The translations under genes and the position numbers were made by a program. A DNA stretch of 64,000 nt from Bacilli bacterium (GTDB lineage Bacteria > Bacillota_I > Bacilli_A > RFN20 > CAG-826), in the NCBI GenBank assembly GCA_051872395.1, contig JBJEDU010000035.1, positions 5,740 through 69,739 of the forward strand, written 5' to 3'. Numbering within the stretch: the first letter of the stretch is position 1; every line of letters begins with the position of its first letter. Below, in pieces: positions 19,429 to 55,426 of this stretch. A model generated the notes under the pieces. It saw only the letters and a program-made list of their open reading frames with translations. It was not told the DNA's origin and made no database searches.

Positions 19429-19785
19429 TTATTCGCTATCTTTTTTTATACCTGCGACATCACTGACAGGGAGAGAAAAAGCAATGCCTTGACAATCAGT
19501 TCCTAATCCCGCCGCGGTATTTATCGCTAATAAAACATTATCTCTAATTGATTGATGAACGAGAATTAAAATTAATTCTTTATCTGGAGAAATGGTAATA
19601 TCAAATTTGGATGTTAATTCTTTAGTAGCGGTTCCTCTAGCGTGAAGAATTGTGCCACCTTTCGCTCCTTCTTTTCTCGCTGCGTCCATAACAATATCTG
19701 AATAGCCAGAATTGATAATGACAACAAGACATTCATATTCATTTTCTTCTGTAATAATCTCTTCTTTTTTTGTTTCTTTTTTCAT
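19429..19785 (-). CDS. P-II (GlnB-like) family small regulatory protein
   Basis: 118 aa; ferredoxin-like P-II pattern (LVVIINSGYSDIVMDAARKEGAKGGTIL...GTDCQGIAFSLPV resembling the GDGKIFV region). Confidence 0.65.
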   Translation of the reverse strand: MKKETKKEEIITEENEYECLVVIINSGYSDIVMDAARKEGAKGGTILHARGTATKELTSKFDITISPDKELILILVHQSIRDNVLLAINTAAGLGTDCQGIAFSLPVSDVAGIKKDSE

Positions 19786-19799
19786 AAAATAATCCTCGC

Positions 19800-20189
19800 T
19801 TACATCTTTGAAAATATGCGATATGCAGTAACGGAAGATATGGCTTTTAAGTCTACTGAAAATCCAATTCCTTTACTTGAATCATCCATTTTAAAATAGG
19901 CTTCAAGTTCAACTTTATAAAGAGGTAAATCTTCTTTTCGACATAATGTAAAAACTATATCTTTTTTATTATTTTCAATTCCTAAAATGTCATAGACATC
20001 TTTGCTTGCTGTTCCTAAACCAATTTGAGAAAAAGTTAAAATGGAACCGAGTGAATTAAATAATTTGGTAATAGAATTGCCTTCTCCACGAGGAACGATT
20101 GCGATGTAGAAAGAAAGTGGTTTAATATCACTTCGATCTTCGTATTTTTGTTTAACTTTCTCAACTTTTTTCTTAATTATTCTCGCCAT
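19800..20189 (-). CDS. Small hypothetical protein, possibly second P-II-like subunit
   Basis: 129 aa, operonic between DUF1538-like membrane protein and P-II-like gene; no definitive motif. Confidence 0.4.
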   Translation of the reverse strand: MARIIKKKVEKVKQKYEDRSDIKPLSFYIAIVPRGEGNSITKLFNSLGSILTFSQIGLGTASKDVYDILGIENNKKDIVFTLCRKEDLPLYKVELEAYFKMDDSSKGIGFSVDLKAISSVTAYRIFSKM

Positions 20190-20200
20190 AAAATTAAACC

Positions 20201-21733
20201 TTAAAAGTGAATAATTTGATTATCATCTTGGTCGTAAACAATTTTTCTATTGTGGAAGATAATCTTCATTTCTTTAACCTTTTCGACCATACCTAATAAT
20301 TGAATACCGATAATTGGTGTTAACGCAATAAGTGCGACAACACCAAAAGAAGTTGAATAGTAATCCGCGGATTCGCCATATAAAGTGAATGTTACACCTA
20401 AAATTAAAGGTAAGACAAAACTAACAGACATTGGTCCAGAAGCCGTTCCACCACTATCGAAAGCAAAGGCTGTATATATATCATTACAAAAGAACATGAG
20501 AACTAAAGAAATAATATATCCTGGAACCATGTAATACATAATTGAGAAATTATAAATCACCCTAATCGCACTAAGCATAATGGCTAAACCAACACCAATA
20601 GAAAGAGTAATTAAAACTGTTCTCTTTTTAATTCTTCCATCACTTATTGCTTCAATTTGTCCAGTTAAAACATGGACTGCGGGTTCACATAAAATAGTTA
20701 ATAAACCTATACCAAAACAAATGAGGATAATGACTATTGGTTCATGTTTTCCTAAAAGTGAACCAATCATTCCTCCGATAGGATTCATCACTGCACTAAC
20801 AGCGGTTAAAAATAAAACTAATCCGACATAAGTAAAAGCAAAACCAGTAAGTAACTTTAATACTTTCCTTCTTGGAAGTTTAATAAATATTAACTCATAA
20901 ATAAAGAAAATGACTAAAATTGGTAGAATCGCCATTAAGACTTCAATTAGAGAACCTAATGAAGTTGCACTGCTTGGTAAAAGAGCTTTAATAAAGTTTG
21001 ACCATTGAGGATTATTAATAGCGAATTCAAAGTAACCTGAAATATTTTTATTTAAGATAATTAGTAATGTCATAGTAAAGATTGGTCCAATTGAGGCCAT
21101 TCCTACTAAACCAAAAGAATCATTCGTGGAATTTTTACCACCACGAACAATCGCTACACCAGCGCCAAGAGATAAAATAAAAGGCACCGTCGCACTACCA
21201 GTAGTAATTCCACCACTATCAAAAATAAATGGAAGGAAAGTCGGATTATTAAGTGCGCATAAAATTATGAGCATAAATGTTATCGCATAGAAAAATAAAT
21301 ACCAAACTTTTAAAGAACCATGAATGATAATTCTAATAATTCCGATAACGACAAATATTCCCACTCCAACAGCGATAGAGCCAATCAATAAAAATTTATT
21401 AATATTTACTTGCTCGCTGACAACGATAATCGATGGTTCAGCGCATGTAATAAGCGCACCTAAAATAAATGAAAAGATTATAATTATCCAAATATTTTTT
21501 TGTTTTGATAAAGAACTTCCCATATATTCTCCAACTTTTGATAAGGAACTAGAGGCTCCAATTTGAAAGAGTGCTAACCCAACAATTAAAACTAAGGCAC
21601 CAACTAATAAAATTGGATAATTAGAAGATGGTAAAGGAGTTAAGCCTGTCAAAGACAAAATAATGACGATACCAATCATTGGAAGGATTGATAAGCAACT
21701 AGTTAGAAAAGCTTTTAAATATAAATTCTTCAT
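20201..21733 (-). CDS. Internally duplicated polytopic membrane protein (DUF1538-like, putative transporter)
   Basis: 510 aa, two homologous halves each with FDSGG(I/T)(T/A)SG motif (FIFDSGGITTGSATVPF / FAFDSGGTASGPMSVSF), about 12 TM segments. Confidence 0.6.
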   Translation of the reverse strand: MKNLYLKAFLTSCLSILPMIGIVIILSLTGLTPLPSSNYPILLVGALVLIVGLALFQIGASSSLSKVGEYMGSSLSKQKNIWIIIIFSFILGALITCAEPSIIVVSEQVNINKFLLIGSIAVGVGIFVVIGIIRIIIHGSLKVWYLFFYAITFMLIILCALNNPTFLPFIFDSGGITTGSATVPFILSLGAGVAIVRGGKNSTNDSFGLVGMASIGPIFTMTLLIILNKNISGYFEFAINNPQWSNFIKALLPSSATSLGSLIEVLMAILPILVIFFIYELIFIKLPRRKVLKLLTGFAFTYVGLVLFLTAVSAVMNPIGGMIGSLLGKHEPIVIILICFGIGLLTILCEPAVHVLTGQIEAISDGRIKKRTVLITLSIGVGLAIMLSAIRVIYNFSIMYYMVPGYIISLVLMFFCNDIYTAFAFDSGGTASGPMSVSFVLPLILGVTFTLYGESADYYSTSFGVVALIALTPIIGIQLLGMVEKVKEMKIIFHNRKIVYDQDDNQIIHF

Positions 21734-36255: not shown

Positions 36256-37071
36256 TTATTCTTTAATAATTTTATAAGTTCCTTTAATCGCTAAAGAGGA
36301 AATATCTTTTGGATTATAAATAGAACAATTTGAAGTGATAACATTACCTTTTAAGTCACTCTCTTCACCAAGATAATCACAATCCACTAATTCGCAATCG
36401 ATAAATTTAATATTTTCACTATAACAAAATGGTTGTTTAGATTTAATTTTACAACGAACAAAGGTGACATTTTTAGCGTACCACGCGACATATTCACCAA
36501 TGATTTCCATATCTTTTACCATGATATTTTCACTATGCCAAAATGGATCTTTCGTCTCTAGTCGACCAACATTTAAATTAATATCTTTAGAATATTGAAA
36601 AGAATATTTTCCTTTCAAATTCAAATTTGTCGCGTTGATATCTTGGCAATGTAAAAAAGCATATATGCTTTCAATATTAATATTTATTAGTTTAATATGT
36701 TGACATTTAATAATGCTTTCATCACCAAGAAGAACACCATTACTAAAATCAATATTTTGACATTCTCTTAAAACTTTATCTCCATTAAATGAAGTATCTT
36801 TAATAACGATGTTATTGCTATACCAAAAAGGTCCTCGACAAGTAATAGCGAAATTACTTCGATTAACTTCCACACCAAGACAATTCCAAAAAGGATAACG
36901 AAGAGCGAAATAAGAATCATTCACTTCGATATCTTTAGAAAATTTAAAAGCACTTTCACCATCTAAAGGACCACCAGTATAAATGTTAGTGAATGAAATC
37001 TTATTGCTTTTAAAAAATATTCTTTCTTGGTCTGAAGAAATATTTGAAATTATGTTTTGATATTTAGTCAT
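36256..37071 (-). CDS. Parallel beta-helix repeat protein of unknown function (DUF3737-like)
   Basis: 271 aa with repeated about 22-aa units rich in N/I/C/F (e.g. SENIMVKDMEIIG, SENIKFIDCELVDC); overlaps hydrogenase gene stop by 8 nt (translational coupling). Confidence 0.5.
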   Translation of the reverse strand: MTKYQNIISNISSDQERIFFKSNKISFTNIYTGGPLDGESAFKFSKDIEVNDSYFALRYPFWNCLGVEVNRSNFAITCRGPFWYSNNIVIKDTSFNGDKVLRECQNIDFSNGVLLGDESIIKCQHIKLININIESIYAFLHCQDINATNLNLKGKYSFQYSKDINLNVGRLETKDPFWHSENIMVKDMEIIGEYVAWYAKNVTFVRCKIKSKQPFCYSENIKFIDCELVDCDYLGEESDLKGNVITSNCSIYNPKDISSLAIKGTYKIIKE

Positions 37072-38497
37072 TTTTTAATACTTTAATCGCATCAGTAATT
37101 GTCTTTTCTAATGCTTCTCTCCCATATTTATCTACTTCTGATTTATCTCTAAATTCATGAGTTAAACAACAAGGACCGCCAATACAACCATTCGTGCACG
37201 CCATACCTTCAATAAAATTGAAATCTCTCAATTCAGGTTTATTTGCCTTATCTAATATGGCTTTACAATTATCAAGACCATCAGCAGCGACAGCTTTAGC
37301 GACAAAGGTAGAATTTTGTTCTTTAAGCGCTTCATTAACCGCGTCCACTAAACCACCACAACGAGCGAATATTCTTCCAAAATAAGAAGCATTATCTAAT
37401 TTATTTTCTTCTAATTCGCTAGCGACAATATCTCGAGAATCAATCAACGCTTGTAATTCTTCAAATGTCAAAACACTATCGACATAATTTTTAACTTTAT
37501 CTAATTGAATTTCTTTCTTTTTAGAAATGCAAGGTCCAATAAAGACAACCTTTGAGGTTGGATCGACACTTTTAATATATTTACTAATCGCCCCCATTGG
37601 AGATAAATTCGATGAAATATATTGAACCAAAGATGGATATTTCTTTTTGATAAAAGAAACAAATGAAGGACAACAACTGCTAGTTAAAAATCCTTTTTCT
37701 TCTAATTCTTTGGCTTCGTCATAACTGACCATATCCGCGCCTAAAGCAGCTTCAACAACACTATGGAAGCCTAACATTTTAATCGCGGTCACCACTTGTC
37801 CTAAAGAAGCATATTTAAATTGTGATGAAATGGAAGGGGCAACAACTGCGTAAACATGATATTTTTTGGAAAAATCACTATCTTTTAAGAAGTCAATAAC
37901 ATCTGTAATATATGATTTATCCATAATCGCTCCAAATGGACATTGATAAACACACGCTCCACATTGAATACATTTTTCATCATCAATTTTTGCAGCAAAG
38001 TCTTCACCCATTGAAATAGCTTTTACTTTACAAGCACTTTCACATGGTCTTTTAAAGTTGATAATCGCTCCATATTGACATGCCTTTGCACATAAACCAC
38101 AGTTGATACATTTAGTTTTATCAATTTGGGCAGTATGAGTCACTTCATTAAATGTAATCGCGTTTCTATGACATGCTTTTTCACATCGATGAGCGATACA
38201 TCCACGACAAGTTCTTGTAACTTCATATCCTCCTAATGGGCATTCATCACAAGCAATATTTAAAACTTGAACAACGTTTGAATTACTTCTATCCCCACCT
38301 TGAGCGACATGCATTCTTTCTAAAACGATTGCTCTTTCTTTATAAATACAACATCTCATCGTTGGTTTTGGACCAGGGACAATACGCTTTGGAATCTCAT
38401 TATATTCTTCAAGCAAAGTACCATTAAAATACGCTCTCGCGACTTCTTTTAATACTTTATATTTCAATTCTTGTACATTCGTATCAAATTTTAACAT
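37064..38497 (-). CDS. [FeFe]-hydrogenase-like protein with N-terminal Fe-S cluster domains (HydA2-like position; H-cluster motifs non-canonical)
   Basis: Two 4Fe-4S ferredoxin motifs (CINCGLCAKAC, CIQCGACVYQC), L1 SSCCPSF, L2 GPCISKKKE, L3 EGMACTNGCIGGPCC. Confidence 0.75.
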   Translation of the reverse strand: MLKFDTNVQELKYKVLKEVARAYFNGTLLEEYNEIPKRIVPGPKPTMRCCIYKERAIVLERMHVAQGGDRSNSNVVQVLNIACDECPLGGYEVTRTCRGCIAHRCEKACHRNAITFNEVTHTAQIDKTKCINCGLCAKACQYGAIINFKRPCESACKVKAISMGEDFAAKIDDEKCIQCGACVYQCPFGAIMDKSYITDVIDFLKDSDFSKKYHVYAVVAPSISSQFKYASLGQVVTAIKMLGFHSVVEAALGADMVSYDEAKELEEKGFLTSSCCPSFVSFIKKKYPSLVQYISSNLSPMGAISKYIKSVDPTSKVVFIGPCISKKKEIQLDKVKNYVDSVLTFEELQALIDSRDIVASELEENKLDNASYFGRIFARCGGLVDAVNEALKEQNSTFVAKAVAADGLDNCKAILDKANKPELRDFNFIEGMACTNGCIGGPCCLTHEFRDKSEVDKYGREALEKTITDAIKVLKND

Positions 38498-38526: not shown

Positions 38527-39705
38527 TTAGAAATAACTAACTTTAATTTTCTTTCCCATTTGTTTTAATAATTTTGATAATTCATCAATCAATTGCATTT
38601 TAATTGAAAAATTAATTTGTAATCCTTCTTTTTGATGAGCAGGATTAACTGCACATCCAACAAAGAAATTAATATCTGTCGCTTCTTCAAATAATAATCT
38701 CGCTATTTGGCTCGCCCCATCTTGCGCGTAACTCCAATAAAAATATTTGGAATTATCTTCTAATACATTTTTCGCGTACTCTAATACTTTATTGATAGTG
38801 ATAACGCCTTCAGTAACTAAATCCACACCTTCAATCGAAGAAGTTGGAGGAATTTCTTTATCAATATAATCGAGTGATAATTCTAAGGGTTTATCTAAAA
38901 ATTTAGAAACCATATTAGATGTTGAACCACCTGAAACGATATGCTTCCCTTCTTTAGCGAAAAACAAAGATAACATTTTATTATCATCATCTCTATTACT
39001 CGCCGGTCCAATAAGAAGATTACACATTGATTTTTTTCTCACTCTCACCACGACCGCGGTCGTATCATCTTGAGGTTTACCACCATATAAACTATTACAA
39101 TGATCAATTAGCATCGTCGCTAAAGTTTTACTTGAATAAATTGGTGAATATAAATTAGACATGAAATCGACAATATTAGGTCTATCCCATCCCCAATTTA
39201 ATGAATTACCAATTCCAGCGTGAATTGTTCCATCACTCATCAAAATGAAAGTATCGTATAATTTTGCATTAATATGAGAGTGATATATTTTCTTTCCATC
39301 AATTTCAGACATCACTTGCATGACTGGATATTCCTTACCATCTCTTAAAATGATGGGTTGAGGATTGTCATAATTATATATATCAATCGAAGTGTTATTA
39401 GTAATTTTTAAAATGGTAAATGTTGAATATGCGACATGGCGATCTTTACAAACTGGAAGAGTTTCCACTACTGTTTGTACACATTCTTCAATCGAAATGT
39501 TATTAGCCATCATCGTTGAAAGAATGCGACTAGTCAAAGTCGACAAAATGTTAGCCTTAACTCCACTTCCTAAACCATCCGCTAAAACGACAATGTGGGT
39601 ATTATCATCTTTAGAAATTATCTCAACATGATCACCACATAATTGTTCACCTTCATGATTTAAAGATAAATAACCAATTTCTGTGACATAATTATTTAAT
39701 ATCAT
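38527..39705 (-). CDS. PP2C/SpoIIE-type serine phosphatase with about 165-aa C-terminal domain of unknown function
   Basis: PP2C motifs GDHVEII...VVLADGLGSGVKA and FILMSDGTIHAG; start overlaps hydS by 14 nt. Confidence 0.7.
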   Translation of the reverse strand: MILNNYVTEIGYLSLNHEGEQLCGDHVEIISKDDNTHIVVLADGLGSGVKANILSTLTSRILSTMMANNISIEECVQTVVETLPVCKDRHVAYSTFTILKITNNTSIDIYNYDNPQPIILRDGKEYPVMQVMSEIDGKKIYHSHINAKLYDTFILMSDGTIHAGIGNSLNWGWDRPNIVDFMSNLYSPIYSSKTLATMLIDHCNSLYGGKPQDDTTAVVVRVRKKSMCNLLIGPASNRDDDNKMLSLFFAKEGKHIVSGGSTSNMVSKFLDKPLELSLDYIDKEIPPTSSIEGVDLVTEGVITINKVLEYAKNVLEDNSKYFYWSYAQDGASQIARLLFEEATDINFFVGCAVNPAHQKEGLQINFSIKMQLIDELSKLLKQMGKKIKVSYF

Positions 39706-41380
39706 CTTTGAATGTATCCTTTAAACTTGATAAGGCCACTTTCGTTTCTGCTGCGGTTTCACCGAGTAAAGAAGCAATTTCTTGAACACTTCTCATATTT
39801 TTATCGATAACTTTATTAGTTATTTCGATAGATTTTCTTAATAATTCTTCTTTATTTTGTTTTTCAATCTCTTCATTAGTGATATCTCTCATAATGACGA
39901 TAAGAATATGGAATTGATGATCAAATACAATAGTTTGTTCGACATATTTATTGTATTCAGTCAAATATTCTTTTTTTCCATGAATTGTATCTAAACCACA
40001 TAACACTTTCGCATATAAATCTGGTTCTAATATCGTCGTGACATTTTTACCAGTAACAAAAGAAGAATCAGGAACTCCAATAATCTTACACATTGATTGA
40101 TTCATTAATTGAATGTTTAATTCTTCATCTAACACCATCAATCCATTTGGAGTATTGCTGACAATATTTTCCGAGAAAGATTCCGCTTTATCCATGAGGT
40201 AAGGTAAGCACATTTCTTTAACGGCTTTGCCTTCTAAAATCGCAATCGCTTTTTCTCGGCAAGTATTATATCCACAAGAACCACAGTTGAGTTCTTTTGA
40301 TTTATCATTTTTACCCATTTCTTTTAAAATGCGGTCAATTTCTTTTTCACTTGGTCTGGCTTTTTTAACATTGATTTCATAGAAATCTTTTCTTATATCT
40401 TCATAAGATTTTTCAGAGACTATAAAATCTTCTTTTCCAGCTTTTTGATGGACATATAAATAATCTTGTAATAAAGCTTTTCTTTTTGCATTTAACGCTG
40501 GTCCATTAATACAAGAACCACTACAAGCACTCATTTCAATAAAACAATGATGAACTTTTCCGCTTTCAATATCTTCTAAAGCTCGTAAAACATTATCCAT
40601 TCCATCAATTACCAAATATTGATAGTTTTTATTACGACATTCCATCGATGAAAGAATACCACCTGAAGTAGGAAATAGTCTTGTTTTACTATTGTTATTA
40701 ATTTCATCGTGATCTTGTTTAGAAATTTCAATATTGGCTTCTTTGAGCATATTATCTAATTCTAAAAATGTTAAGACCACGTCAATATAGGCTTTGTTTT
40801 TATCCGATTCATCCTTTTTAGCAATACATGGTCCAATAAAAACAACTTTCGCGTCTTTATGACGTAATTTAATGTCTTCTCCATGAGCGAGCATTGGTGA
40901 AAGGACATTAGCTAAATATGGTAAACATTTTGGATGATGTTTTTGTAAAAGTAAATTAATGGAATGACAGCAAGAAGAAATGATAATATCTTGCTTATTT
41001 TCATCGAGCATTTGATCATATACTTTTTTAACAATTGTCGCACCTATCGCAGTTTCTTCAACATCATAAAAACCTAATTTTAATAGTGCTTCTTTGACAT
41101 TATTAAAACCACAATTACGATACGCGGCAAAAAAGGAAGGGGCTAAAGAGACAATGACTTTCTCCCCGTTAGCGATCATATTTTTGACTAATCTCACATC
41201 ATCACGAATGACTTTTGTGCCTTGTGGACATGAAACATAGCAGCGACCACATAAGATACATTCATCATGGATAATTTTTGCTTGATTAGAAGAAAATGAA
41301 ATAGATTTTGTTGGACAACCTCTAATACATTTATAACAATTTTTACAATCATTTGTTTTGCTAGATAAACAATATTCCAT
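39692..41380 (-). CDS. hydS: Putative sensory [FeFe]-hydrogenase (HydS-like): 2x[4Fe-4S] domain, H-domain, Cx2Cx4Cx16C cluster motif, C-terminal PAS domain
   Basis: CKNCYKCIRGC/CILCGRCYVSC ferredoxin motifs; L1 SSCCHS, L2 GPCIAKKDE, L3 EMSACSGSC; CGSCGYNTC-x16-C; PAS-like C-terminus (aa about 400-520). Confidence 0.75.
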   Translation of the reverse strand: MEYCLSSKTNDCKNCYKCIRGCPTKSISFSSNQAKIIHDECILCGRCYVSCPQGTKVIRDDVRLVKNMIANGEKVIVSLAPSFFAAYRNCGFNNVKEALLKLGFYDVEETAIGATIVKKVYDQMLDENKQDIIISSCCHSINLLLQKHHPKCLPYLANVLSPMLAHGEDIKLRHKDAKVVFIGPCIAKKDESDKNKAYIDVVLTFLELDNMLKEANIEISKQDHDEINNNSKTRLFPTSGGILSSMECRNKNYQYLVIDGMDNVLRALEDIESGKVHHCFIEMSACSGSCINGPALNAKRKALLQDYLYVHQKAGKEDFIVSEKSYEDIRKDFYEINVKKARPSEKEIDRILKEMGKNDKSKELNCGSCGYNTCREKAIAILEGKAVKEMCLPYLMDKAESFSENIVSNTPNGLMVLDEELNIQLMNQSMCKIIGVPDSSFVTGKNVTTILEPDLYAKVLCGLDTIHGKKEYLTEYNKYVEQTIVFDHQFHILIVIMRDITNEEIEKQNKEELLRKSIEITNKVIDKNMRSVQEIASLLGETAAETKVALSSLKDTFKDDIK

Positions 41381-41406
41381 ATTGATTTCCTCAAAAAATT
41401 AGACTA

Positions 41407-41429
41407 TTAACCCCCAAATTGGGGGTTAA
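41407..41429. promoter_or_regulatory. Perfect GC-rich inverted repeat TTAACCCCC-AAATT-GGGGGTTAA in ferredoxin-hydS intergenic region (possible attenuator/processing or protein-binding site)
   Basis: Read directly; U6 tract lies 8 nt downstream on transcribed strand, then RBS GAGGAAAT of hydS. Confidence 0.4.
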
Positions 41430-41443
41430 TCAGTAAAATGTAA

Positions 41444-41692: not shown

Positions 41693-44305
41693 TTAAATAC
41701 CTTTGTAAGCCTTTCTTAATATTTCTTTCATATCATTAACAAGAGGAACTCTTGGATTGGCAGGTGAACATTGATCTTCATAGGCTAAGACAGCGATTTC
41801 ATCAATCTTGCTATCCCAGTCTTCTTGAGAAATTCCACATCCTTCAAAAGAAATCGCTAAGCCAATTTCTTCGCCTAAATTTCTCACTGCAGTCGCTAAG
41901 GAATCGACAGCGACTTCTGGAGTTTCAGCATTTAAACCAAGAAGCTTAGCAATATCTTGATATTTCTTATCGGCACAATAAGTATTATATTTTGGCCAGA
42001 CAGATAATTTAGTAGGAACTTCGCCATTATAACGAATAACATATGGTAATAAGATGGCACATGTATGACCATGAACAGTATGGAATTCCGCTCCAACTTT
42101 ATGGGCTAAAGAGTGAGTCATACCTAAGAACGCATTAGCGAAAGCCATACCGGCGATAGTCGCGGCATTATGCATTTTTTCTCTCGCTTCTAAATCATTT
42201 TTGCCATTTTTCACAGCACGTGGTAAATATTCGAACACTAATTTGATAGCTTGTAAAGCCAAACCATCAGTGTAATCATTGGCCAAGACAGAAACATAAG
42301 CTTCGATAGCGTGAGTTAATACATCCATACCAGTTTGAGCAGTTGGTCGAGCAGGTAAATTAGTGGTAAATTCTGGGTCGACAATCGCGACGGTAGGAGT
42401 TAATGAATAATCGGTAAGAGGATATTTTTTCATATTCTTCTTATCTGAAATAACCGCGAATGGAGTGACTTCAGAACCGGTACCAGAAGTAGTAGGAATA
42501 CAAATTAATTTTGATTTTCTTCCAAGTTCAGGATATTTAAAGGCTCTCTTTCTAATATCCATGAATTTTTGTTTTAAGTCATCGAAATTGACTTCTGGAT
42601 GTTCATAGAATAACCACATTCCTTTAGCAGCATCCATTGGTGAACCACCACCGAGCGCGATGATAGTGTCAGGTTGGAACGCTTCCATCAATTTCACACC
42701 ACGTCTTACAGTTTCAATATCTGGATCTGGTTCAACATCGCAGAATAATTGAACTTGAACAGGACTTCTTCTAAGAGATAATTGTTCAGTAATTTTATTA
42801 ACGAAACCGAAATCGACCATCGAACGGTCAGTAACGATAAAGACTTTATTGACATCACGGCAAGATTGTAAATATTGAATTGAATTTCTTTCAAAATAAA
42901 TTTTGCTTGGAACTTTAAACCATTGCATATTGTTTCTCCTTTTTCCAACACGTTTAATGTTAAGTAAATTGACCGCGGAGACATTGCCTCCGATTGAGTT
43001 ACGTCCATAACTACCACATCCAAGAGTTAAGGATGGTAAGAATGAGTTATAGACATTACCAATACCACCAAAGGTGGAAGGAGAATTCCAAATGATTCTC
43101 ATCGCTTTGCATGCTTCACCAAATTTATCCGCTAAAGCTTGGTCTTTGCAGTGAATTGCTGCGCTATGACCTAAACCATTGAAATTGACACATGAAGCAG
43201 CTAAATGAATACCTTCATCTTCATCTTTCGATTTATATACTGCTAAAACTGGAGATAATTTTTCTCTTGAAAGAGGTTCATCGACTCCAACAGTTTTACA
43301 GAAAGCCGCTAAAACAGAAGTGTCATCTGGGACATCAAAGCCAGCTTGATTGGCAATCCATTTCGCGCTTTGACCAACGATTGTTGGATTTAATTTTGCT
43401 TTGTCGACTTCGCTTGGACTAGAAACTCCGAACATAAATTTTTCGAGCATTTCTTTTTCTTTCTTAGTAACGAAATAAACTTTGAATCTTTTGAATATTT
43501 CAATTGCTTCATCAAAAACTTCTTGGTCGATAATGACTGATTGTTCAGAAGCACAAATCATTCCATTATCAAAGGCTTTAGATAAAACGATATCATTAAC
43601 TGCTTGTTCGACATTCGCAGATTTATTAATATAGGCAGGAACATTACCAGCACCAACACCCATCGCTGGTTTACCACAACTATAGGCAGCTTTAACCATT
43701 GCATTACCACCAGTCGCCAAAATAGTAGCAACACCAGTATGATTCATGAGGGCGGTTGTCGCATCCATTGAAGGATGTTCGACCCATTGAATACAGTTTT
43801 TAGGAGCGCCAGCTTTCACTGCAGCGTCTCTAATCACTTCTGCTGCCATCTTCGAACATTTTTGTGCGCTTGGATGGAAAGCAAAAATAATTGGGTTTCT
43901 TGTTTTTAAACAAATCAAAGCTTTAAAAATAACTGTTGATGTTGGATTAGTAACAGGGGTGATACCACACACGACACCAAGAGGTTCAGCAATTTCAGTA
44001 ATTCCAGTAACTGGGTCATCGCTAATAATTCCAACAGTTTTTAAATGACGCATGTTATTAACAACATATTCACATGCAAATAAATTTTTTGTGGCCTTAT
44101 CTTCGAAAACACCACGTTTTGTTTCATCAATCGCGGCTTTAGCTAAAACACCATGTTGGTCTAAGCCGGCAACACTACATTTTGCTACAATGTAGTCAAC
44201 TTGCTCTTGATTGAGATTTAAAAATTCATCAAGGGCTTCTTTTGCGTTTTTAACAAGTTGATCAACTTCTTCAAACGCTTCAACGCTTACAATTTTTTCT
44301 GCCAT
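41693..44305 (-). CDS. adhE: Bifunctional acetaldehyde-CoA/alcohol dehydrogenase
   Basis: 870 aa; N-terminal ALDH domain with catalytic Cys region (NGMICASEQS), C-terminal iron-ADH domain (GGGSPMDAAK, His-rich metal site). Confidence 0.95.
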   Translation of the reverse strand: MAEKIVSVEAFEEVDQLVKNAKEALDEFLNLNQEQVDYIVAKCSVAGLDQHGVLAKAAIDETKRGVFEDKATKNLFACEYVVNNMRHLKTVGIISDDPVTGITEIAEPLGVVCGITPVTNPTSTVIFKALICLKTRNPIIFAFHPSAQKCSKMAAEVIRDAAVKAGAPKNCIQWVEHPSMDATTALMNHTGVATILATGGNAMVKAAYSCGKPAMGVGAGNVPAYINKSANVEQAVNDIVLSKAFDNGMICASEQSVIIDQEVFDEAIEIFKRFKVYFVTKKEKEMLEKFMFGVSSPSEVDKAKLNPTIVGQSAKWIANQAGFDVPDDTSVLAAFCKTVGVDEPLSREKLSPVLAVYKSKDEDEGIHLAASCVNFNGLGHSAAIHCKDQALADKFGEACKAMRIIWNSPSTFGGIGNVYNSFLPSLTLGCGSYGRNSIGGNVSAVNLLNIKRVGKRRNNMQWFKVPSKIYFERNSIQYLQSCRDVNKVFIVTDRSMVDFGFVNKITEQLSLRRSPVQVQLFCDVEPDPDIETVRRGVKLMEAFQPDTIIALGGGSPMDAAKGMWLFYEHPEVNFDDLKQKFMDIRKRAFKYPELGRKSKLICIPTTSGTGSEVTPFAVISDKKNMKKYPLTDYSLTPTVAIVDPEFTTNLPARPTAQTGMDVLTHAIEAYVSVLANDYTDGLALQAIKLVFEYLPRAVKNGKNDLEAREKMHNAATIAGMAFANAFLGMTHSLAHKVGAEFHTVHGHTCAILLPYVIRYNGEVPTKLSVWPKYNTYCADKKYQDIAKLLGLNAETPEVAVDSLATAVRNLGEEIGLAISFEGCGISQEDWDSKIDEIAVLAYEDQCSPANPRVPLVNDMKEILRKAYKGI

Positions 44306-44311
44306 AATGTT

Positions 44312-44950
44312 TCAATCTTCCTTTAACTTAGTATTTAATTTATGTGAGAGAACGGCGAGTGAACTCGCTAAGTTGACATTTTCCACTATGACGTTCTCAT
44401 TCACTTTTAGAATTGTCGGAGCAAAGTTCCAAATGGCTTTGACTCCTGAATTAATTAATCTATCGCATACTTCTTGAGCGACTTCAGTCGGAGTACATAA
44501 TATTGCGATATGAACATTTAATCGGGGAATTAAGTTTTCAATCCTTTCGATGGAAAATATTTCTTTTCCATTAATGCGAGTTCCTATCTTATTTGGATCA
44601 ATATCAAATCCTGCTAAGATGTTTAATCCAAATTCTTCAAATCCATTAAAGTTCATGAACGCTGAACCTAAATGTCCAACACCAACAATTACTGTTGAAG
44701 TTGAATCACGATAACCGAGATAATTTTCTAAATCATCAATGAGGTCTTGAACTTGTCTTCCAGTTTTTGGTTTACCAGAATTAGAAGTAACAATTTGCAA
44801 GTCTTTACGAACTTGCTCTTCATTAAATCCATTCATCGCAGCAATTTGAGGCGCGCTGGTATGGGTAATACCTTCACTTTTTAACCCCTTCAAATACTTT
44901 AAGTAAATTGGAAGTCTCGCTAATTGTTTAACTGAAATGGGCTTTTCCAC
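44312..44950 (-). CDS. rex: Redox-sensing transcriptional repressor Rex
   Basis: wHTH N-terminus (RLPIYLKYLK), Rossmann GVGHLG; GTG start with RBS AAGGAGAG; 6 nt upstream of adhE. Confidence 0.9.
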   Translation of the reverse strand: MEKPISVKQLARLPIYLKYLKGLKSEGITHTSAPQIAAMNGFNEEQVRKDLQIVTSNSGKPKTGRQVQDLIDDLENYLGYRDSTSTVIVGVGHLGSAFMNFNGFEEFGLNILAGFDIDPNKIGTRINGKEIFSIERIENLIPRLNVHIAILCTPTEVAQEVCDRLINSGVKAIWNFAPTILKVNENVIVENVNLASSLAVLSHKLNTKLKED

Positions 44951-51292: not shown

Positions 51293-53182
51293 CTATCTAT
51301 GAGAATACTTTTTCTTTTTGACAATTAATATAATTAATGCGCTGATAACTACAATTGAAATAATTGAAACAAATCCGACAAGTGTGTTGCCATTACTAAT
51401 GAAGTTTACATAAACGGAACCTAAAGTAGAAACAACAGCGGCACTATTCATATAGTTAATTGTTTCAACTACACCACATTTAGTAACTACGACATCATTA
51501 AGGTAATAAGTTTCACCTGGATCTACAATATTATTGTAATTATAATCATCGCTATTATTAATGATGGTTTTCGCAGTTACATCACTTATCGCATTATATT
51601 TACTAACTATATCGTTTCTTGTTTCAGTAGATAATTGACACAATGTATCACTACCATAATTACGCACTGTCGCATAGAATTCATCTAAGAAATTGAATGC
51701 TTTGAGTACAGAATCATTTTCTTCTTCAATATTTGAAACACCACGAACATATTTTGGATAAACAACGCCTTTGAATGTTTGATCTGGAGTCGCATCACAG
51801 GTTTGTTTAATAATATTGTCATCGAGTTCAACTTTAATGTCATTAACATTTAAATTGAATCTAATTTCATCAATATAGGATAAACCCCATCCATCACCGG
51901 TATTATTTTCACCGATTTCTAAATAAACGGTTTTTCCAACTAAACCAGAAATATCAACAAATACTTCGGTCATAGTATTAATCATACTTTTGCTGCTAAC
52001 AATATTGGCTACACCATTATCAACGAAGTAACGCATATTATTTCCAGTAGGAGTAAATTCAAATAAAACATCTTCAGTAGTAGAGTCAATTAAACGAACA
52101 TTAGCTTTCGCTGCTCCAATACGGAATGCCATATAATTATCTGTAATATTGATAGTAAATTTTGATCTTAATAATACTTTTACAGTTTCAGCAATTCCAG
52201 TCCAAGTTGGGTGAGTAGAGAAAAATTTATTACCGTGTTTATTAAATGGCATATGTTCTGCCCATTCATAACAATCTCTGGAAGAAATCATAGCGTTCCA
52301 CATATCATTTGTTAATTCAAGTGTCGATGAATCTTCATTGATAGAAAGATTAGTGAAATAATCCGCTAAAGCGATACCTTCAAAATCTAAAACCTCATAA
52401 CTTTGCCAATCATTTGATCTAAATGATGCAAATTCTTCAGTTTCATTGATTTTGCTCATCATATAGGCGTATTGACCAGCGTCTTTGTCGCCATCTGTTT
52501 GAGTGAGATAAGCATTTTTACGATAAGCCCTAATATCATTAGTAACATCCTCTGCAGTTTGATTGAATTTCAAACCACCGAAGTTGACAATACCAAATCC
52601 GCCAGTATTATTATCGACAACACGAACTGAAATATAATGATCGACATAATCCGCTAAATCAGCGACACGAATGTATAAAGCTTCACCAGTTTTTGGATCA
52701 TGAAATAAGCCAACATTCGTGAATTTTTTGATAGCAACACTACTGGTATTATCAGTGCCATTATCAATAATTTCGACATAGAGATTTTCTTCATTCGCTC
52801 CACCGCCTAAATAGAAAGTAAGATATCTTTCTGTTTGTTTGACTGGAGTTTTTAATTGAAGCTTTGATGTATTAGCGTCTCCACTTGCGGTTATTGTTTC
52901 ACCATCAGTGTCATAATTAACATCATCTACGCTTCGGTAAAAATCGATACCCTCTGGTACAAAGAATGAACGCACTGACCACCATCTACTAGTGCTGTTT
53001 GATGTAGGAAAACAACCAGTTGTTCCATCGACATATTCAAATGTATCACTACTGAATGCCACAGAAGTAACTGGGGATTCATCTTCTGCTTTTGCAACAT
53101 GACTATTATTTGCTTTCAAACCACTTGCAAATAATAATGACGCCATGAAAACAGGGACGAATAATAATTTCTTATTTTTCAT
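51293..53182 (-). CDS. Cell-surface protein with signal peptide, two degenerate CBM_4_9-like modules and C-terminal TM anchor
   Basis: Signal MKNKKLLFVPVFMASLLFASG; module endings LYIRVADLADYVDHYISVRVVDNNTGGFGIVNFGGLKF and VYLEIGENNTGDGWGLSYIDEIRF; C-terminal hydrophobic anchor plus KKKK. Confidence 0.6.
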   Translation of the reverse strand: MKNKKLLFVPVFMASLLFASGLKANNSHVAKAEDESPVTSVAFSSDTFEYVDGTTGCFPTSNSTSRWWSVRSFFVPEGIDFYRSVDDVNYDTDGETITASGDANTSKLQLKTPVKQTERYLTFYLGGGANEENLYVEIIDNGTDNTSSVAIKKFTNVGLFHDPKTGEALYIRVADLADYVDHYISVRVVDNNTGGFGIVNFGGLKFNQTAEDVTNDIRAYRKNAYLTQTDGDKDAGQYAYMMSKINETEEFASFRSNDWQSYEVLDFEGIALADYFTNLSINEDSSTLELTNDMWNAMISSRDCYEWAEHMPFNKHGNKFFSTHPTWTGIAETVKVLLRSKFTINITDNYMAFRIGAAKANVRLIDSTTEDVLFEFTPTGNNMRYFVDNGVANIVSSKSMINTMTEVFVDISGLVGKTVYLEIGENNTGDGWGLSYIDEIRFNLNVNDIKVELDDNIIKQTCDATPDQTFKGVVYPKYVRGVSNIEEENDSVLKAFNFLDEFYATVRNYGSDTLCQLSTETRNDIVSKYNAISDVTAKTIINNSDDYNYNNIVDPGETYYLNDVVVTKCGVVETINYMNSAAVVSTLGSVYVNFISNGNTLVGFVSIISIVVISALIILIVKKKKYSHR

Positions 53183-53203: not shown

Positions 53204-55426
53204 TTAAAGTGTATTTATAGCGTTAGCCCAAGGAATATCTGTCACTACTGGCGGGTTACCAGTAACTTCAACTTGGGATACGGTATCAAATTTTGTTGAG
53301 ACATCAATTTCAGTCTCATAATAAGTGACGATTTCATCAAAGAAGACAACTTGCCATCCTCCATCGATAACTTCATCCACTAATTCGATATATAAGTTTT
53401 CTCCAATATAATCACTTAAATCAGCAACATAAGTTACCATTGTTGCTAAGCGACAACCATTAGAAACAGATGGGAAATTAACATCCGCGAAATTATAATT
53501 TTCATATTTTGCAATCATTTCGCCATTTTCTCTTCTAACAATTACTCTCGTGGAACGACCACCTAATTTAAATGAGATTTGTCCACTACCACCTAAGGTG
53601 AAATTAGTGGATTTAAATGAGAAGCCATTTGATTCTTCTACTCCGGCATCCCATCCATTGAAGAAGTATGTTCCAGTTTTGTTATAAGGAATTTCTTCAC
53701 TCCAGAAGGTATCAAGCGAACAAATGGCCGCATTGAGATTTGGACTACCACTTGTAATGGTCCAGCCAGTGGCATCTCCAGTTTCAAATCCACCATTAAC
53801 GATGTTATTATCGTAAGTCATCTTAGTAACAACTTCGATTTTGATTGTACCTACTGAAACATTGTTATAAGCATCAGTCGCGCTGAAAGTATATAAATAT
53901 GTTCCGTTTTGACTTAAATCACAAGCATAGTAATTGACATCTTCTAAAGTTGTTCCGTTTCTACTTAATGAAACTGAACGAATGACGAGATCATTTCTAA
54001 CAGTGTAATCATCTTTAATAGTTGTATTTTTGATGAGTTCCACTAAATTGTATGAACTACTAGCAGAAATCATTGTTTGATAAGCGTAATCGTTTTCATC
54101 GACTGAAATGACAGGAGCGTCTCCACCTACTGGGAATGAAATAACATTGTTATAAGCATCAATATAGGCGTTTTTCGCTACGCTATCATCGTTATATAAA
54201 CTACCATCCACTAAAGAAGCTCTTTCATTAATGATGGTTTCTTGACTCAAATTAATTCTGAATTCGTCAGCGTTAATTGCTGCAAAGCCTCCACTAGTCG
54301 CATTATCGTTAATAGTGAAATATAATGTTTGACCAATATAATTTGATAAATCGACATAATATCTCACTAATGAAAGTGATAATTCTGGGTCTTTAAAGGC
54401 AATGTTTTTAATTTTAATTAACTCTTCGCCTGTTAAACCGTTGTTAACAGCGATATATCCACTCGCGTCTTTAATACCACCTAATAAAACCGAAGCGTAT
54501 GAGGTGTTATTGCCTTGATCGGTGACGAGGAATTTTTCACTTCTTATCGTGCCGGTTAAATTTTCAGCATTTTTATATCCATTAAGGAAATAATTTCCAC
54601 TTGCGTTATGTTTTCTATCGGTCCAGAAATTTTCACTACTTAAACTAACTGAACCTTGAGTAAAGGCATTACCTTTAAGTATTTTCCAATAAGATAAATC
54701 GCCAGTTTCAAACCCACCATTTCTTAATTCTGTCACTGGAGGGTCATTATCGATGACTTCATCATGATATTCAATTAATTGTTCTTCTCTTTGAGTTCTT
54801 GCATCATTTAATTCTTGAGCGTTTTTCAAAATGCGAACATCATCGAGATTGACAAATGAATAATCGATATAATCACTATTTCTATCATTATCAGTAACTT
54901 TGATATAAATGACTTTTTCAAAATAATCACTCAAATCAACAACTTGTCTAATAAGTTGAGATTTAATGGTCGAATCATTGAAATCATCATTTGTTAATTT
55001 TGTGACTGTTTCTTGTTTTTGATTGACAATAAATGAAAGTGGTTCCGTTTTGCCGTATTCAAAAAATTCAATATAGCAATTTTCTTTATTTTTCATCGCT
55101 CCAATTTTTAAGGTAATTTGACCGATACCTTCTAAAACGAATGGATCTGAGATTAAACTACCAGTAAATGATGGAAGAGAAGAATAACCACCTACATAAC
55201 AATATGACCCTTCTTTATTTGTTGGAAGTCCGTCATTAAAAGTATCGATGTTCACAATATCTTCTTCTGTGAATGCACCTTCACCACTGACAGTCCAGCC
55301 TGTAATTCCATCTTCAAAGCTTCCGTTAGTGACACTATCAGGGAAAGAAGTAGTATCAGTGGTATCTTTTTGACAGCCAGTTAATAAAAGAGGGAGAATC
55401 AATAAGGGGAGAATCTTTTTGTTCAT
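53204..55426 (-). CDS. Surface lipoprotein with three tandem CBM_4_9-like beta-sandwich modules (putative fructan-binding protein)
   Basis: Lipobox LLLTGC; three repeats starting NGSFEDGITGW / NGGFETGDLSYW / NGGFETGDATGW and ending (V/Y)VDLS(D/N)YIG..LY(F/I); 740 aa. Confidence 0.65.
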   Translation of the reverse strand: MNKKILPLLILPLLLTGCQKDTTDTTSFPDSVTNGSFEDGITGWTVSGEGAFTEEDIVNIDTFNDGLPTNKEGSYCYVGGYSSLPSFTGSLISDPFVLEGIGQITLKIGAMKNKENCYIEFFEYGKTEPLSFIVNQKQETVTKLTNDDFNDSTIKSQLIRQVVDLSDYFEKVIYIKVTDNDRNSDYIDYSFVNLDDVRILKNAQELNDARTQREEQLIEYHDEVIDNDPPVTELRNGGFETGDLSYWKILKGNAFTQGSVSLSSENFWTDRKHNASGNYFLNGYKNAENLTGTIRSEKFLVTDQGNNTSYASVLLGGIKDASGYIAVNNGLTGEELIKIKNIAFKDPELSLSLVRYYVDLSNYIGQTLYFTINDNATSGGFAAINADEFRINLSQETIINERASLVDGSLYNDDSVAKNAYIDAYNNVISFPVGGDAPVISVDENDYAYQTMISASSSYNLVELIKNTTIKDDYTVRNDLVIRSVSLSRNGTTLEDVNYYACDLSQNGTYLYTFSATDAYNNVSVGTIKIEVVTKMTYDNNIVNGGFETGDATGWTITSGSPNLNAAICSLDTFWSEEIPYNKTGTYFFNGWDAGVEESNGFSFKSTNFTLGGSGQISFKLGGRSTRVIVRRENGEMIAKYENYNFADVNFPSVSNGCRLATMVTYVADLSDYIGENLYIELVDEVIDGGWQVVFFDEIVTYYETEIDVSTKFDTVSQVEVTGNPPVVTDIPWANAINTL

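Follow-up and report, generated by a model that had tools for sequence, protein, structure and literature searches.

What does the C-terminal part of a phosphatase do when its gene overlaps that of a putative sensory [FeFe] hydrogenase, and on which side of the presumed switch does it stand: the side that receives the signal or the side that acts on a target? This question is raised by a 392-residue protein encoded in the window, i.e. the whole stretch of 64,000 nucleotides that was analysed here. The cluster around its gene (Table 1) has the gene order and orientation of the hfsABCD operons of Thermoanaerobacterium saccharolyticum, T. thermosaccharolyticum and Clostridium thermocellum and of the hydS-hydA2 cluster of Ruminococcus albus 7, including the linkage to Rex and AdhE (PMC5707799, PMC11837493, PMC6776011). 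In the known order, the small [2Fe-2S] protein HfsA is followed by the PAS-containing [FeFe] hydrogenase HfsB/HydS, the serine phosphatase HfsC and the ferredoxin-type hydrogenase HfsD; the same three papers name HfsC only a 'serine phosphatase homologue' and leave its C-terminal domain unmentioned (PMC5707799, PMC11837493, PMC6776011). The gene in the window is thus the hfsC of a Rex-AdhE-HfsA-HydS-HfsC-HfsD operon and an ordinary member of an already known gene family. The earlier note on this DNA did not recognise the gene set as the named hfsABCD operon.

Table 1. Features of the hfs cluster in the window, in order of position; residue numbers are those of the 392-residue HfsC-like protein.
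Feature	Position	Strand	Basis or remark
DUF3737 gene, 8-nt overlap with the hfsD stop	36256..37071	(-)	PF12541, E 7e-77
hfsD-like gene, group B monomeric [FeFe] hydrogenase, ferredoxin-type, 477 aa	37064..38497	(-)	TIGR04105, 549.6 bits against a cut-off of 450
hfsC-like gene, PP2C and C-terminal domain, 392 aa	38527..39705	(-)	ATG start; NCBI MGM9874241.1
Undescribed C-terminal alpha/beta domain, residues 226-392, with stop codon	38527..39030	(-)	No Pfam, NCBIfam or PDB sequence match
G350-C-A-V-N354-P-A-H-Q358 motif after strand 4	38632..38658	(-)	G350 and N354 invariant
D295-L-V-T298-E299-G300 motif	38806..38823	(-)	E299 and G300 invariant
G259-G260-S261-T262, GG[ST][ST] loop that connects strand 2 to helix 2; may bind phosphate or serve as phospho-acceptor	38920..38931	(-)	Conservation and model
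PP2C (SpoIIE/RsbU-type) catalytic domain, residues 1-225	39031..39705	(-)	D25, D43, D158 and D213/D214 conserved
Overlap of hydS stop and hfsC start, 14 nt (ATGATATTAAATAA)	39692..39705	(-)	Translational coupling
hydS/hfsB, putative sensory [FeFe] hydrogenase: Fer4, Fe_hyd_lg_C, PF04060 FeS, PAS, C-terminal helical tail	39692..41380	(-)	Pfam
hfsA-like gene, small thioredoxin-like [2Fe-2S] protein, 81 aa	41444..41689	(-)	PF01257, E 2e-8
adhE, bifunctional aldehyde/alcohol dehydrogenase; separated from the downstream hfsA by 3 nt	41693..44305	(-)	Related loci have homologues in this place
rex, redox-sensing repressor; the tightly packed cluster begins with it	44312..44950	(-)	PF06971 and PF02629

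Putative sensory [FeFe] hydrogenases are still termed uncharacterised in reviews and recent papers (PMC13104023; bioRxiv 10.1101/2024.08.15.608110). In HydDB, [FeFe] group C3 is labelled 'phosphatase-linked (putative)' and described as a putative H2 sensor co-transcribed with a Ser/Thr phosphatase, its role being given as undetermined (PMC5037454). The HydS of the window presumably falls into group C3, an assignment that follows from its phosphatase linkage only and that concerns the hydrogenase, which is what HydDB classifies, and not the phosphatase.

An identical NCBI record exists for the 392-residue protein, under the title 'MAG: SpoIIE family protein phosphatase [Bacilli bacterium]'. Indeed, the N-terminal 225 residues belong to the SpoIIE/PP2C family, as the earlier note had proposed: the Pfam SpoIIE profile (PF07228) matches residues 34-223 with 53.3 bits (E 4.4e-14, cut-off 25) and is covered from position 2 to 192, and NCBIfam TIGR02865 matches with its phosphatase end only, at residues 6-222. 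The motifs on which that proposal was based are present, and in an alignment of 15 homologues CGDH (D25), LADGLGSGVKA (D43), MSDG (D158) and DDTT (D213/D214) are invariant. These metal-binding aspartate motifs align with SGD, SDGMGNG, MSDG and EDDMT of SpoIIE, and the N-terminal part of HfsC has the beta-sandwich fold of PP2C phosphatases. Residues 1-225 are therefore a SpoIIE/RsbU-type PP2C Ser/Thr phosphatase, predicted from its motifs to be catalytically competent. Its domain order is distinct: in SpoIIE, RsbU, RsbP and RsbX the regulatory domains are N-terminal, whereas in HfsC the PP2C domain comes first and the extra domain is C-terminal.

A database search returned at least 8000 significant homologues, and among the 120 matches listed almost all are 386-393 residues long, with a query coverage of 98-100%. 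Given this full-length coverage and the continuous reading frame, the C-terminal region is neither a separate gene nor the product of a frameshift; a frameshift that would make it a separate gene was a refutation named in the earlier note. In a model of the full-length protein (pTM 0.83), the strand formed by residues 215-224 enters the next one, residues 227-232, after two residues; as modelled, no flexible linker separates the C-terminal domain from the last PP2C strand. Synteny, together with the size and the single architecture of the family, suggests that the gene is orthologous to the genetically studied HfsC (ACU11596.1).

Is the close association of hydS and hfsC peculiar to the window? 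A search with the full-length alignment yielded 80 related genome loci (proteins 58-73% identical), from Oscillospiraceae, Christensenellales, Erysipelotrichaceae, Selenomonadales, a Mycoplasmatota isolate, Desulfitobacterium and others; 77 metagenome loci were gathered independently. Nearly all of the genome loci have the order HfsA-HydS-HfsC-HfsD. The 14-nt overlap described in the earlier note follows from the extent of hydS and the ATG of hfsC at 39705, and it has counterparts in most relatives: the hydS stop and the hfsC start overlap by 8-17 nt (8, 11, 14 or 17) in 71 of 76 genome loci and in 52 of the 55 metagenome loci measured, 49 of these with 8 nt. HydS stands immediately 5' of HfsC in all 58 metagenome loci whose sequence extends far enough. 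These figures support a coupling of the phosphatase to HydS. One genome locus (L031) carries an orphan HfsC with no HydS nearby.

Clustering of the neighbouring genes yielded HydS/HfsD, HfsA, a gene with an APH/RIO-like protein-kinase fold, AdhE, a LysR regulator and Rex as the only recurrent companions. A logic of the anti-sigma or partner-switch type, as put forward in the earlier note, is not borne out: STAS, anti-sigma or RsbW-type genes are recurrent nowhere among the 80 related loci, and none was found within about 20 kb in the window. Unlike partner-switch PP2Cs, HfsC has no linked STAS substrate, anti-sigma factor or kinase of the RsbW/SpoIIAB type; where a kinase is linked, it is the APH/RIO-like one. 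The latter matches the Pfam families APH (3e-14) and RIO1 (1e-8) and lies between adhE and hfsA in 38 of the 80 genome loci and in 43 of 46 metagenome loci. The operon in the window differs in this respect from the R. albus cluster, which includes an APH-like Ser/Thr kinase: tblastn detected no homologue of it across the whole 64 kb, and Pfam scans of the open reading frames of at least 110 aa between 19.4 and 56.8 kb revealed no other kinase or partner-switch component. The APH-like kinase is also absent from the loci of the closest relatives (L001-L005 and L011). Since this kinase is common among the loci and not universal, its absence does not exclude membership in the hfsC clusters.

The earlier note had further held that the remaining 165 or so residues belong to no recognised family, and we found this to be correct. 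Residues 226-392 match no Pfam or NCBIfam family; a PDB sequence search with a profile of 42 C-terminal domain sequences gave nothing better than E = 0.12, and Pfam scans of these 42 members returned scattered weak matches only. The region is nonetheless widespread. A search with residues 226-392 against 1.84 billion cluster representatives (E<=1e-3) identified 971 clusters that contain it, in most of them at about residues 225-390 of a protein of about 390 residues. An AlphaFold (AF2) model of residues 226-392 alone, built from the 42 diverse domains (34-64% identical to the query), reached a pLDDT of 92.5 and a pTM of 0.87. In this model a beta-alpha-beta-alpha unit is followed by a loop with the IPP motif, a short strand, three helices and a final beta-alpha-beta unit. 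Thus, the C-terminal region of about 165 residues is an autonomous, conserved alpha/beta domain outside any described family, with a predicted Rossmann-like fold.

Conservation was counted over 82 diverse domains, about 35-65% identical to the query. G233, G259, G260, E299, G300, G350 and N354 are invariant, and P234, P286, G293, T298 and T303 are conserved in at least 96%; a Thr or a Ser occupies positions 261 and 262 in 96-98%, and most domains also keep D295, K369 and K385. The resulting motifs are GPP, GG[ST][ST], D-LVTEG and G-x-A-x-N. In the model, nearly all of the conserved residues are found where strands end or helices begin, with K385 at the opposite edge. The ends of the strands are where Rossmann-like folds usually have their ligand-binding or active-site crevice, and the conserved residues probably line a crevice of this type. 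It would suit the binding of a small molecule no less than that of a phosphoprotein.

Does the fold point to a known family? A Foldseek search of the domain model against the PDB returned no match at E<=1e-3, and the best TM-score was 0.41. The top matches, UbiX, methylglyoxal synthase and PGK (TM <=0.41, E >=4e-3), were set aside as a generic Rossmann-like resemblance; sequence identity to the fold matches does not exceed 17%. A SIS domain was the single match of the PDB profile search (E 0.12). The NBD_C domain of the DUF1537 four-carbon acid sugar kinases (PF17042) had come to mind through a similar GGxT(A/S) motif and two weak Pfam matches. Two of the 42 members match it (best E 3.7e-4), and an hhalign comparison of the domain profile with an NBD_C protein, E. 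coli YgbK, aligned 20 columns at the GGxTS loop with a probability of 2.7%, in a test weakened by the C-terminally short K-12 copy; homology to NBD_C was rejected. A further set of five top matches brings in the MGD-binding Rossmann-like domain of molybdopterin oxidoreductases (FdhF of HDCR, 7qv7_S; FwdB-like, 6s6y_B; FdnG, 1kqf_A) and the related cofactor-less domain of NuoG. Identity to these five is 8-13%, the Pfam Molybdopterin family is not matched and Foldseek gave no significant match; a likeness of this level is common among Rossmann-like folds, and homology is not established by it.

The most informative members of the family are those in which the C-terminal domain is encoded on its own. 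These genes of 162-207 aa have their own N-termini and group together in a neighbour-joining tree, in a small clade of about eight divergent representatives (P0149/P0277, P0150, P0181, P0195, P0214 and P0225/P0276; P0171 is a separate case). They retain all invariant residues of the domain, and their operons contain no HydS, no PAS protein of any kind and no PP2C domain. In six of the eight informative contexts the stand-alone gene directly follows hfsA, and in three of these six the APH-like kinase gene precedes hfsA. With Cdom for the stand-alone domain, the six arrangements are HfsA-Cdom-HfsD (L085 and L092), LysR-APH kinase-HfsA-Cdom-NfnA-NfnB with a 4-nt overlap of hfsA and the domain gene (L100), APH kinase-HfsA-Cdom-NfnA-NfnB (L096), AdhE-APH kinase-HfsA-Cdom (L098) and HfsA-Cdom (L099). 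The two others are without hfsA upstream, one reading dnaX-ybaB-Cdom (L081) and one lying next to a divergently transcribed AdhE-like fragment (L087). Taking HydS and the PP2C domain out of the fused layout gives the stand-alone one, and HfsA, often together with the kinase, is the most constant companion of the stand-alone domain.

Most of the short homologues returned by a search with the stand-alone profile (165, 211, 237 and 328 aa) retain part of the PP2C end; they are fused genes that were called too short, and were not counted as stand-alone. A scan for further stand-alone loci in metagenomes found 77 of 80 to be fused and added no new stand-alone example; in one locus (L133) the PP2C and the C-terminal domain are split into two open reading frames on a contig with a coverage of 1.7x, where a frameshift error is likely. 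In the literature that we found, HfsC has not been divided in this way: its C-terminal 165 residues are a discrete unannotated domain family that is separable from HydS and PP2C, yet stays with HfsA and the APH-like kinase.

What do the stand-alone copies imply for the role of the domain? As they sit in operons devoid of HydS and of a PP2C domain, the domain must be able to function without HydS and without a fused phosphatase. This makes the target or kinase side the more likely place for it, and the domain is probably located on the output side of the switch rather than being the receiver of the hydrogen signal. The receiver role was one of two offered in the earlier note: the domain would dock the PAS domain or the C-terminal helix of HydS and relay a conformational change to the PP2C domain. 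Such a role would agree with the finding that hydS and hfsC are strictly adjacent and translationally coupled, and with the fusion of nearly all family members to a PP2C domain that follows HydS; moreover, the PP2C domain of HfsC, unlike those of SpoIIE, RsbU and RsbP, has no N-terminal regulatory domain, so that the sole extra domain is the C-terminal one. It is hard to reconcile with stand-alone copies that carry all invariant residues in operons without HydS or a PAS protein and with the orphan HfsC, and the conservation looks like that of a crevice for a ligand or an active site rather than that of a flat surface for docking. We consider a HydS receiver quite improbable; the other role offered, the binding of a target, appears to be the better half of that proposal.

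The crevice itself would be accounted for, as would the fold matches, if the domain were a sensor of a small molecule such as NAD(P)H, ATP/ADP or a sugar phosphate that acts allosterically on PP2C, through which HfsC would merge the metabolic or redox state with the H2 signal. Neither Foldseek against the PDB nor hhalign against YgbK produced a significant match in favour of such a sensor, and on its own it leaves the tie of the stand-alone copies to hfsA and the kinase unexplained; we regard it as rather unlikely. PP2C phosphatases of the SpoIIE/RsbU/RsbP group are regulated via the dimerisation of accessory domains, and the domain could be a structural module that pairs two PP2C domains and has no ligand or partner of its own. 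The rigid two-residue connection and the confidently predicted arrangement of the two domains are in line with this. However, the loops along one edge of the sheet contain seven invariant and five near-invariant residues, E299 and N354 among them, which is more than a dimer interface usually shows, and copies without a PP2C domain keep the conserved residues; a purely structural role thus seems very doubtful to us.

We therefore favour, tentatively and with a probability of roughly 40%, a HydS-controlled PP2C phosphatase whose C-terminal domain works on the output side, where it helps to set the phosphorylation state for HfsD. Apart from domain anatomy and gene order, each step of this mechanism is one that we infer. 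HydS would sense H2 at its H-cluster, and its PAS domain and C-terminal helix would modulate the PP2C domain within a stoichiometric HydS-HfsC complex. The C-terminal domain would act as an output-side module that links the phosphatase to the [2Fe-2S] protein HfsA, the APH-like kinase and the hydrogenase, and it may dock on, or belong to, a module of HfsA, kinase and HfsD (or NfnAB). Its crevice, formed by GPP, GG[ST][ST], D-LVTEG, G-x-A-x-N and K/R369, might recognise phosphate, whether carried by a docked phosphoprotein or by the domain's own GG[ST][ST] loop. Kinase and PP2C would together set a phosphorylation state that controls the activity of HfsD and, indirectly, the expression of adhE. 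The small size of the stand-alone clade, the truncated gene calls among the short homologues, the two stand-alone loci without hfsA (L081 and L087) and the absence of a kinase from the operon and from the 64 kb of the window weigh against this output-side reading, as does the equal fit of the crevice to a small molecule.

Published genetics are compatible with it. In T. saccharolyticum, deletion of hfsA or hfsB leads to a higher ethanol yield, and deletion of hfsB to a higher hydrogenase activity, while the deletions of hfsC and hfsD share a phenotype of wild-type ethanol and high lactate (PMC5707799). Over-expression of hfsD alone reproduces the phenotype of the hfsB deletion (PMC11837493). 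These observations fit a role of HfsC as a positive factor for HfsD that is restrained by HfsA and HfsB.

A more far-reaching possibility, to which we give little credence at present, is that the C-terminal domain is a new phospho-switch domain, an analogue of STAS that is unrelated to it in fold. The APH-like kinase would phosphorylate the GG[ST][ST] loop or HfsA, the HydS-controlled PP2C would reverse this, and the resulting state would gate HfsD, or NfnAB in the stand-alone systems; the triad of kinase, HfsA and C-terminal domain would be the ancestral core, with HydS and PP2C as an added H2 input. If true, this would amount to a widespread post-translational redox switch in fermentative Firmicutes.

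How sensory hydrogenases relay their signal becomes a narrower question with a discrete conserved domain that travels with HfsA and the kinase free of HydS. Testable handles are the residues T/S261-262, E299 and N354 and the partners HfsA, kinase, HfsD and NfnAB. The hfs operon also has a practical side, as deletion of hfsB makes several thermophiles high-yield ethanol producers, and related clusters control the output of H2 and ethanol in Clostridia of the rumen and the gut. We anticipate that the domain is of relevance to research on HydS signalling and to the engineering of hfs-based ethanologens; at the level of the system, the locus holds no surprise.

Some variation is seen at the downstream end of the cluster. 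In a few loci, a bifurcating HydB/HydA hydrogenase replaces HfsD. The operon in the window differs from the R. albus cluster also in the DUF3737 gene that is coupled to hfsD; no homologue of this gene was found in the 80 related loci, and it is a lineage-specific addition to the cluster.

The C-terminal domain of HfsC (C-domain, residues 226-392), the PP2C phosphatase encoded in the hfs operon, is also found away from the putative sensory hydrogenase HydS. In two related loci, L100 and L096, it is encoded by a stand-alone gene in a cluster that contains no hydrogenase and includes nfnA and nfnB. Since high ethanol yield in T. thermosaccharolyticum was reported to require NfnAB together with HfsD, the group B monomeric [FeFe] hydrogenase (PMC11837493), this link between the C-domain and NfnAB may be functional. 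An orphan HfsC retaining both phosphatase and C-domain is present in L031, where genes for a SpoIID-like protein and an M23 peptidase adjoin it and none for HydS, HfsA or HfsD was found nearby. In a further locus, L133, gene calling divided the PP2C part and the C-domain into two ORFs that share 4 nt; given the contig coverage of only 1.7x, the more likely explanation is a sequencing frameshift, not a true split.

Does the phosphatase have a kinase as its counterpart? Among the relatives, a gene with an APH/RIO-like protein-kinase fold lies upstream of hfsA in 38 of 80 genome loci and in 43 of 46 metagenome loci (an example from L039 is listed in the table). Such a gene was found neither in the operon studied here nor anywhere else in the 64-kb window, and HfsC is thus left without a visible cognate kinase.

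The translations of the two hydrogenase genes differ in the H-cluster motif, which reads SSCCH in HydS and SSCCP in the catalytic HfsD. Such changes near the proton-transfer cysteine are typical of sensory [FeFe] hydrogenases. Downstream, there is an 8-nt overlap between the hfsD stop and the DUF3737 gene, which therefore looks translationally coupled to this hydrogenase gene; as no homologue was found among the 80 related hfs loci, it is a lineage-specific addition to the cluster.

The hfsA stop is separated from the hydS start by a 63-nt gap, and within it lies a strong terminator-like hairpin with a weak T tail; this hairpin could act as an intra-operon attenuator or as an mRNA-stability element. 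In the closest related loci this gap spans only ~19 nt, and the hairpin is thus not conserved.

Coordinates of the features discussed, in the window or in related loci (L-numbers)
Feature	Position	Strand	Details
HydS	39692-41380	minus	
HfsD	37064-38497	minus	
DUF3737 gene	36256-37071	minus	E 7e-77
Terminator-like hairpin	41406-41430	minus	ATTAACCCCCAATTTGGGGGTTAAT, 11-bp stem
Stand-alone C-domain cluster	L100:5031-8983		APH kinase-HfsA-C-domain-NfnA-NfnB
Stand-alone C-domain cluster	L096:462-3468		APH kinase-HfsA-C-domain-NfnA-NfnB
Orphan HfsC	L031:5489-6721		61% identical
Split PP2C/C-domain	L133:1066-2228		between HydS and HfsD
APH/RIO-like kinase gene	L039:5056-5805		
Large ORF	51293-53182	minus	629 aa
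Large ORF	53204-55426	minus	740 aa
P-II-like protein, ORF, DUF1538 protein	19429-21733	minus	118 aa, 129 aa, DUF1538 E 1e-107

Elsewhere in the window, two large ORFs have no Pfam match at E<=1e-4; they are flanked by a GH32 glycoside hydrolase gene on one side and a LacI/PfkB/ABC sugar cluster on the other. A gene for a P-II-like protein, an unassigned small ORF and a gene for a DUF1538 membrane protein are arranged head to tail and may form a P-II-regulated transporter module.
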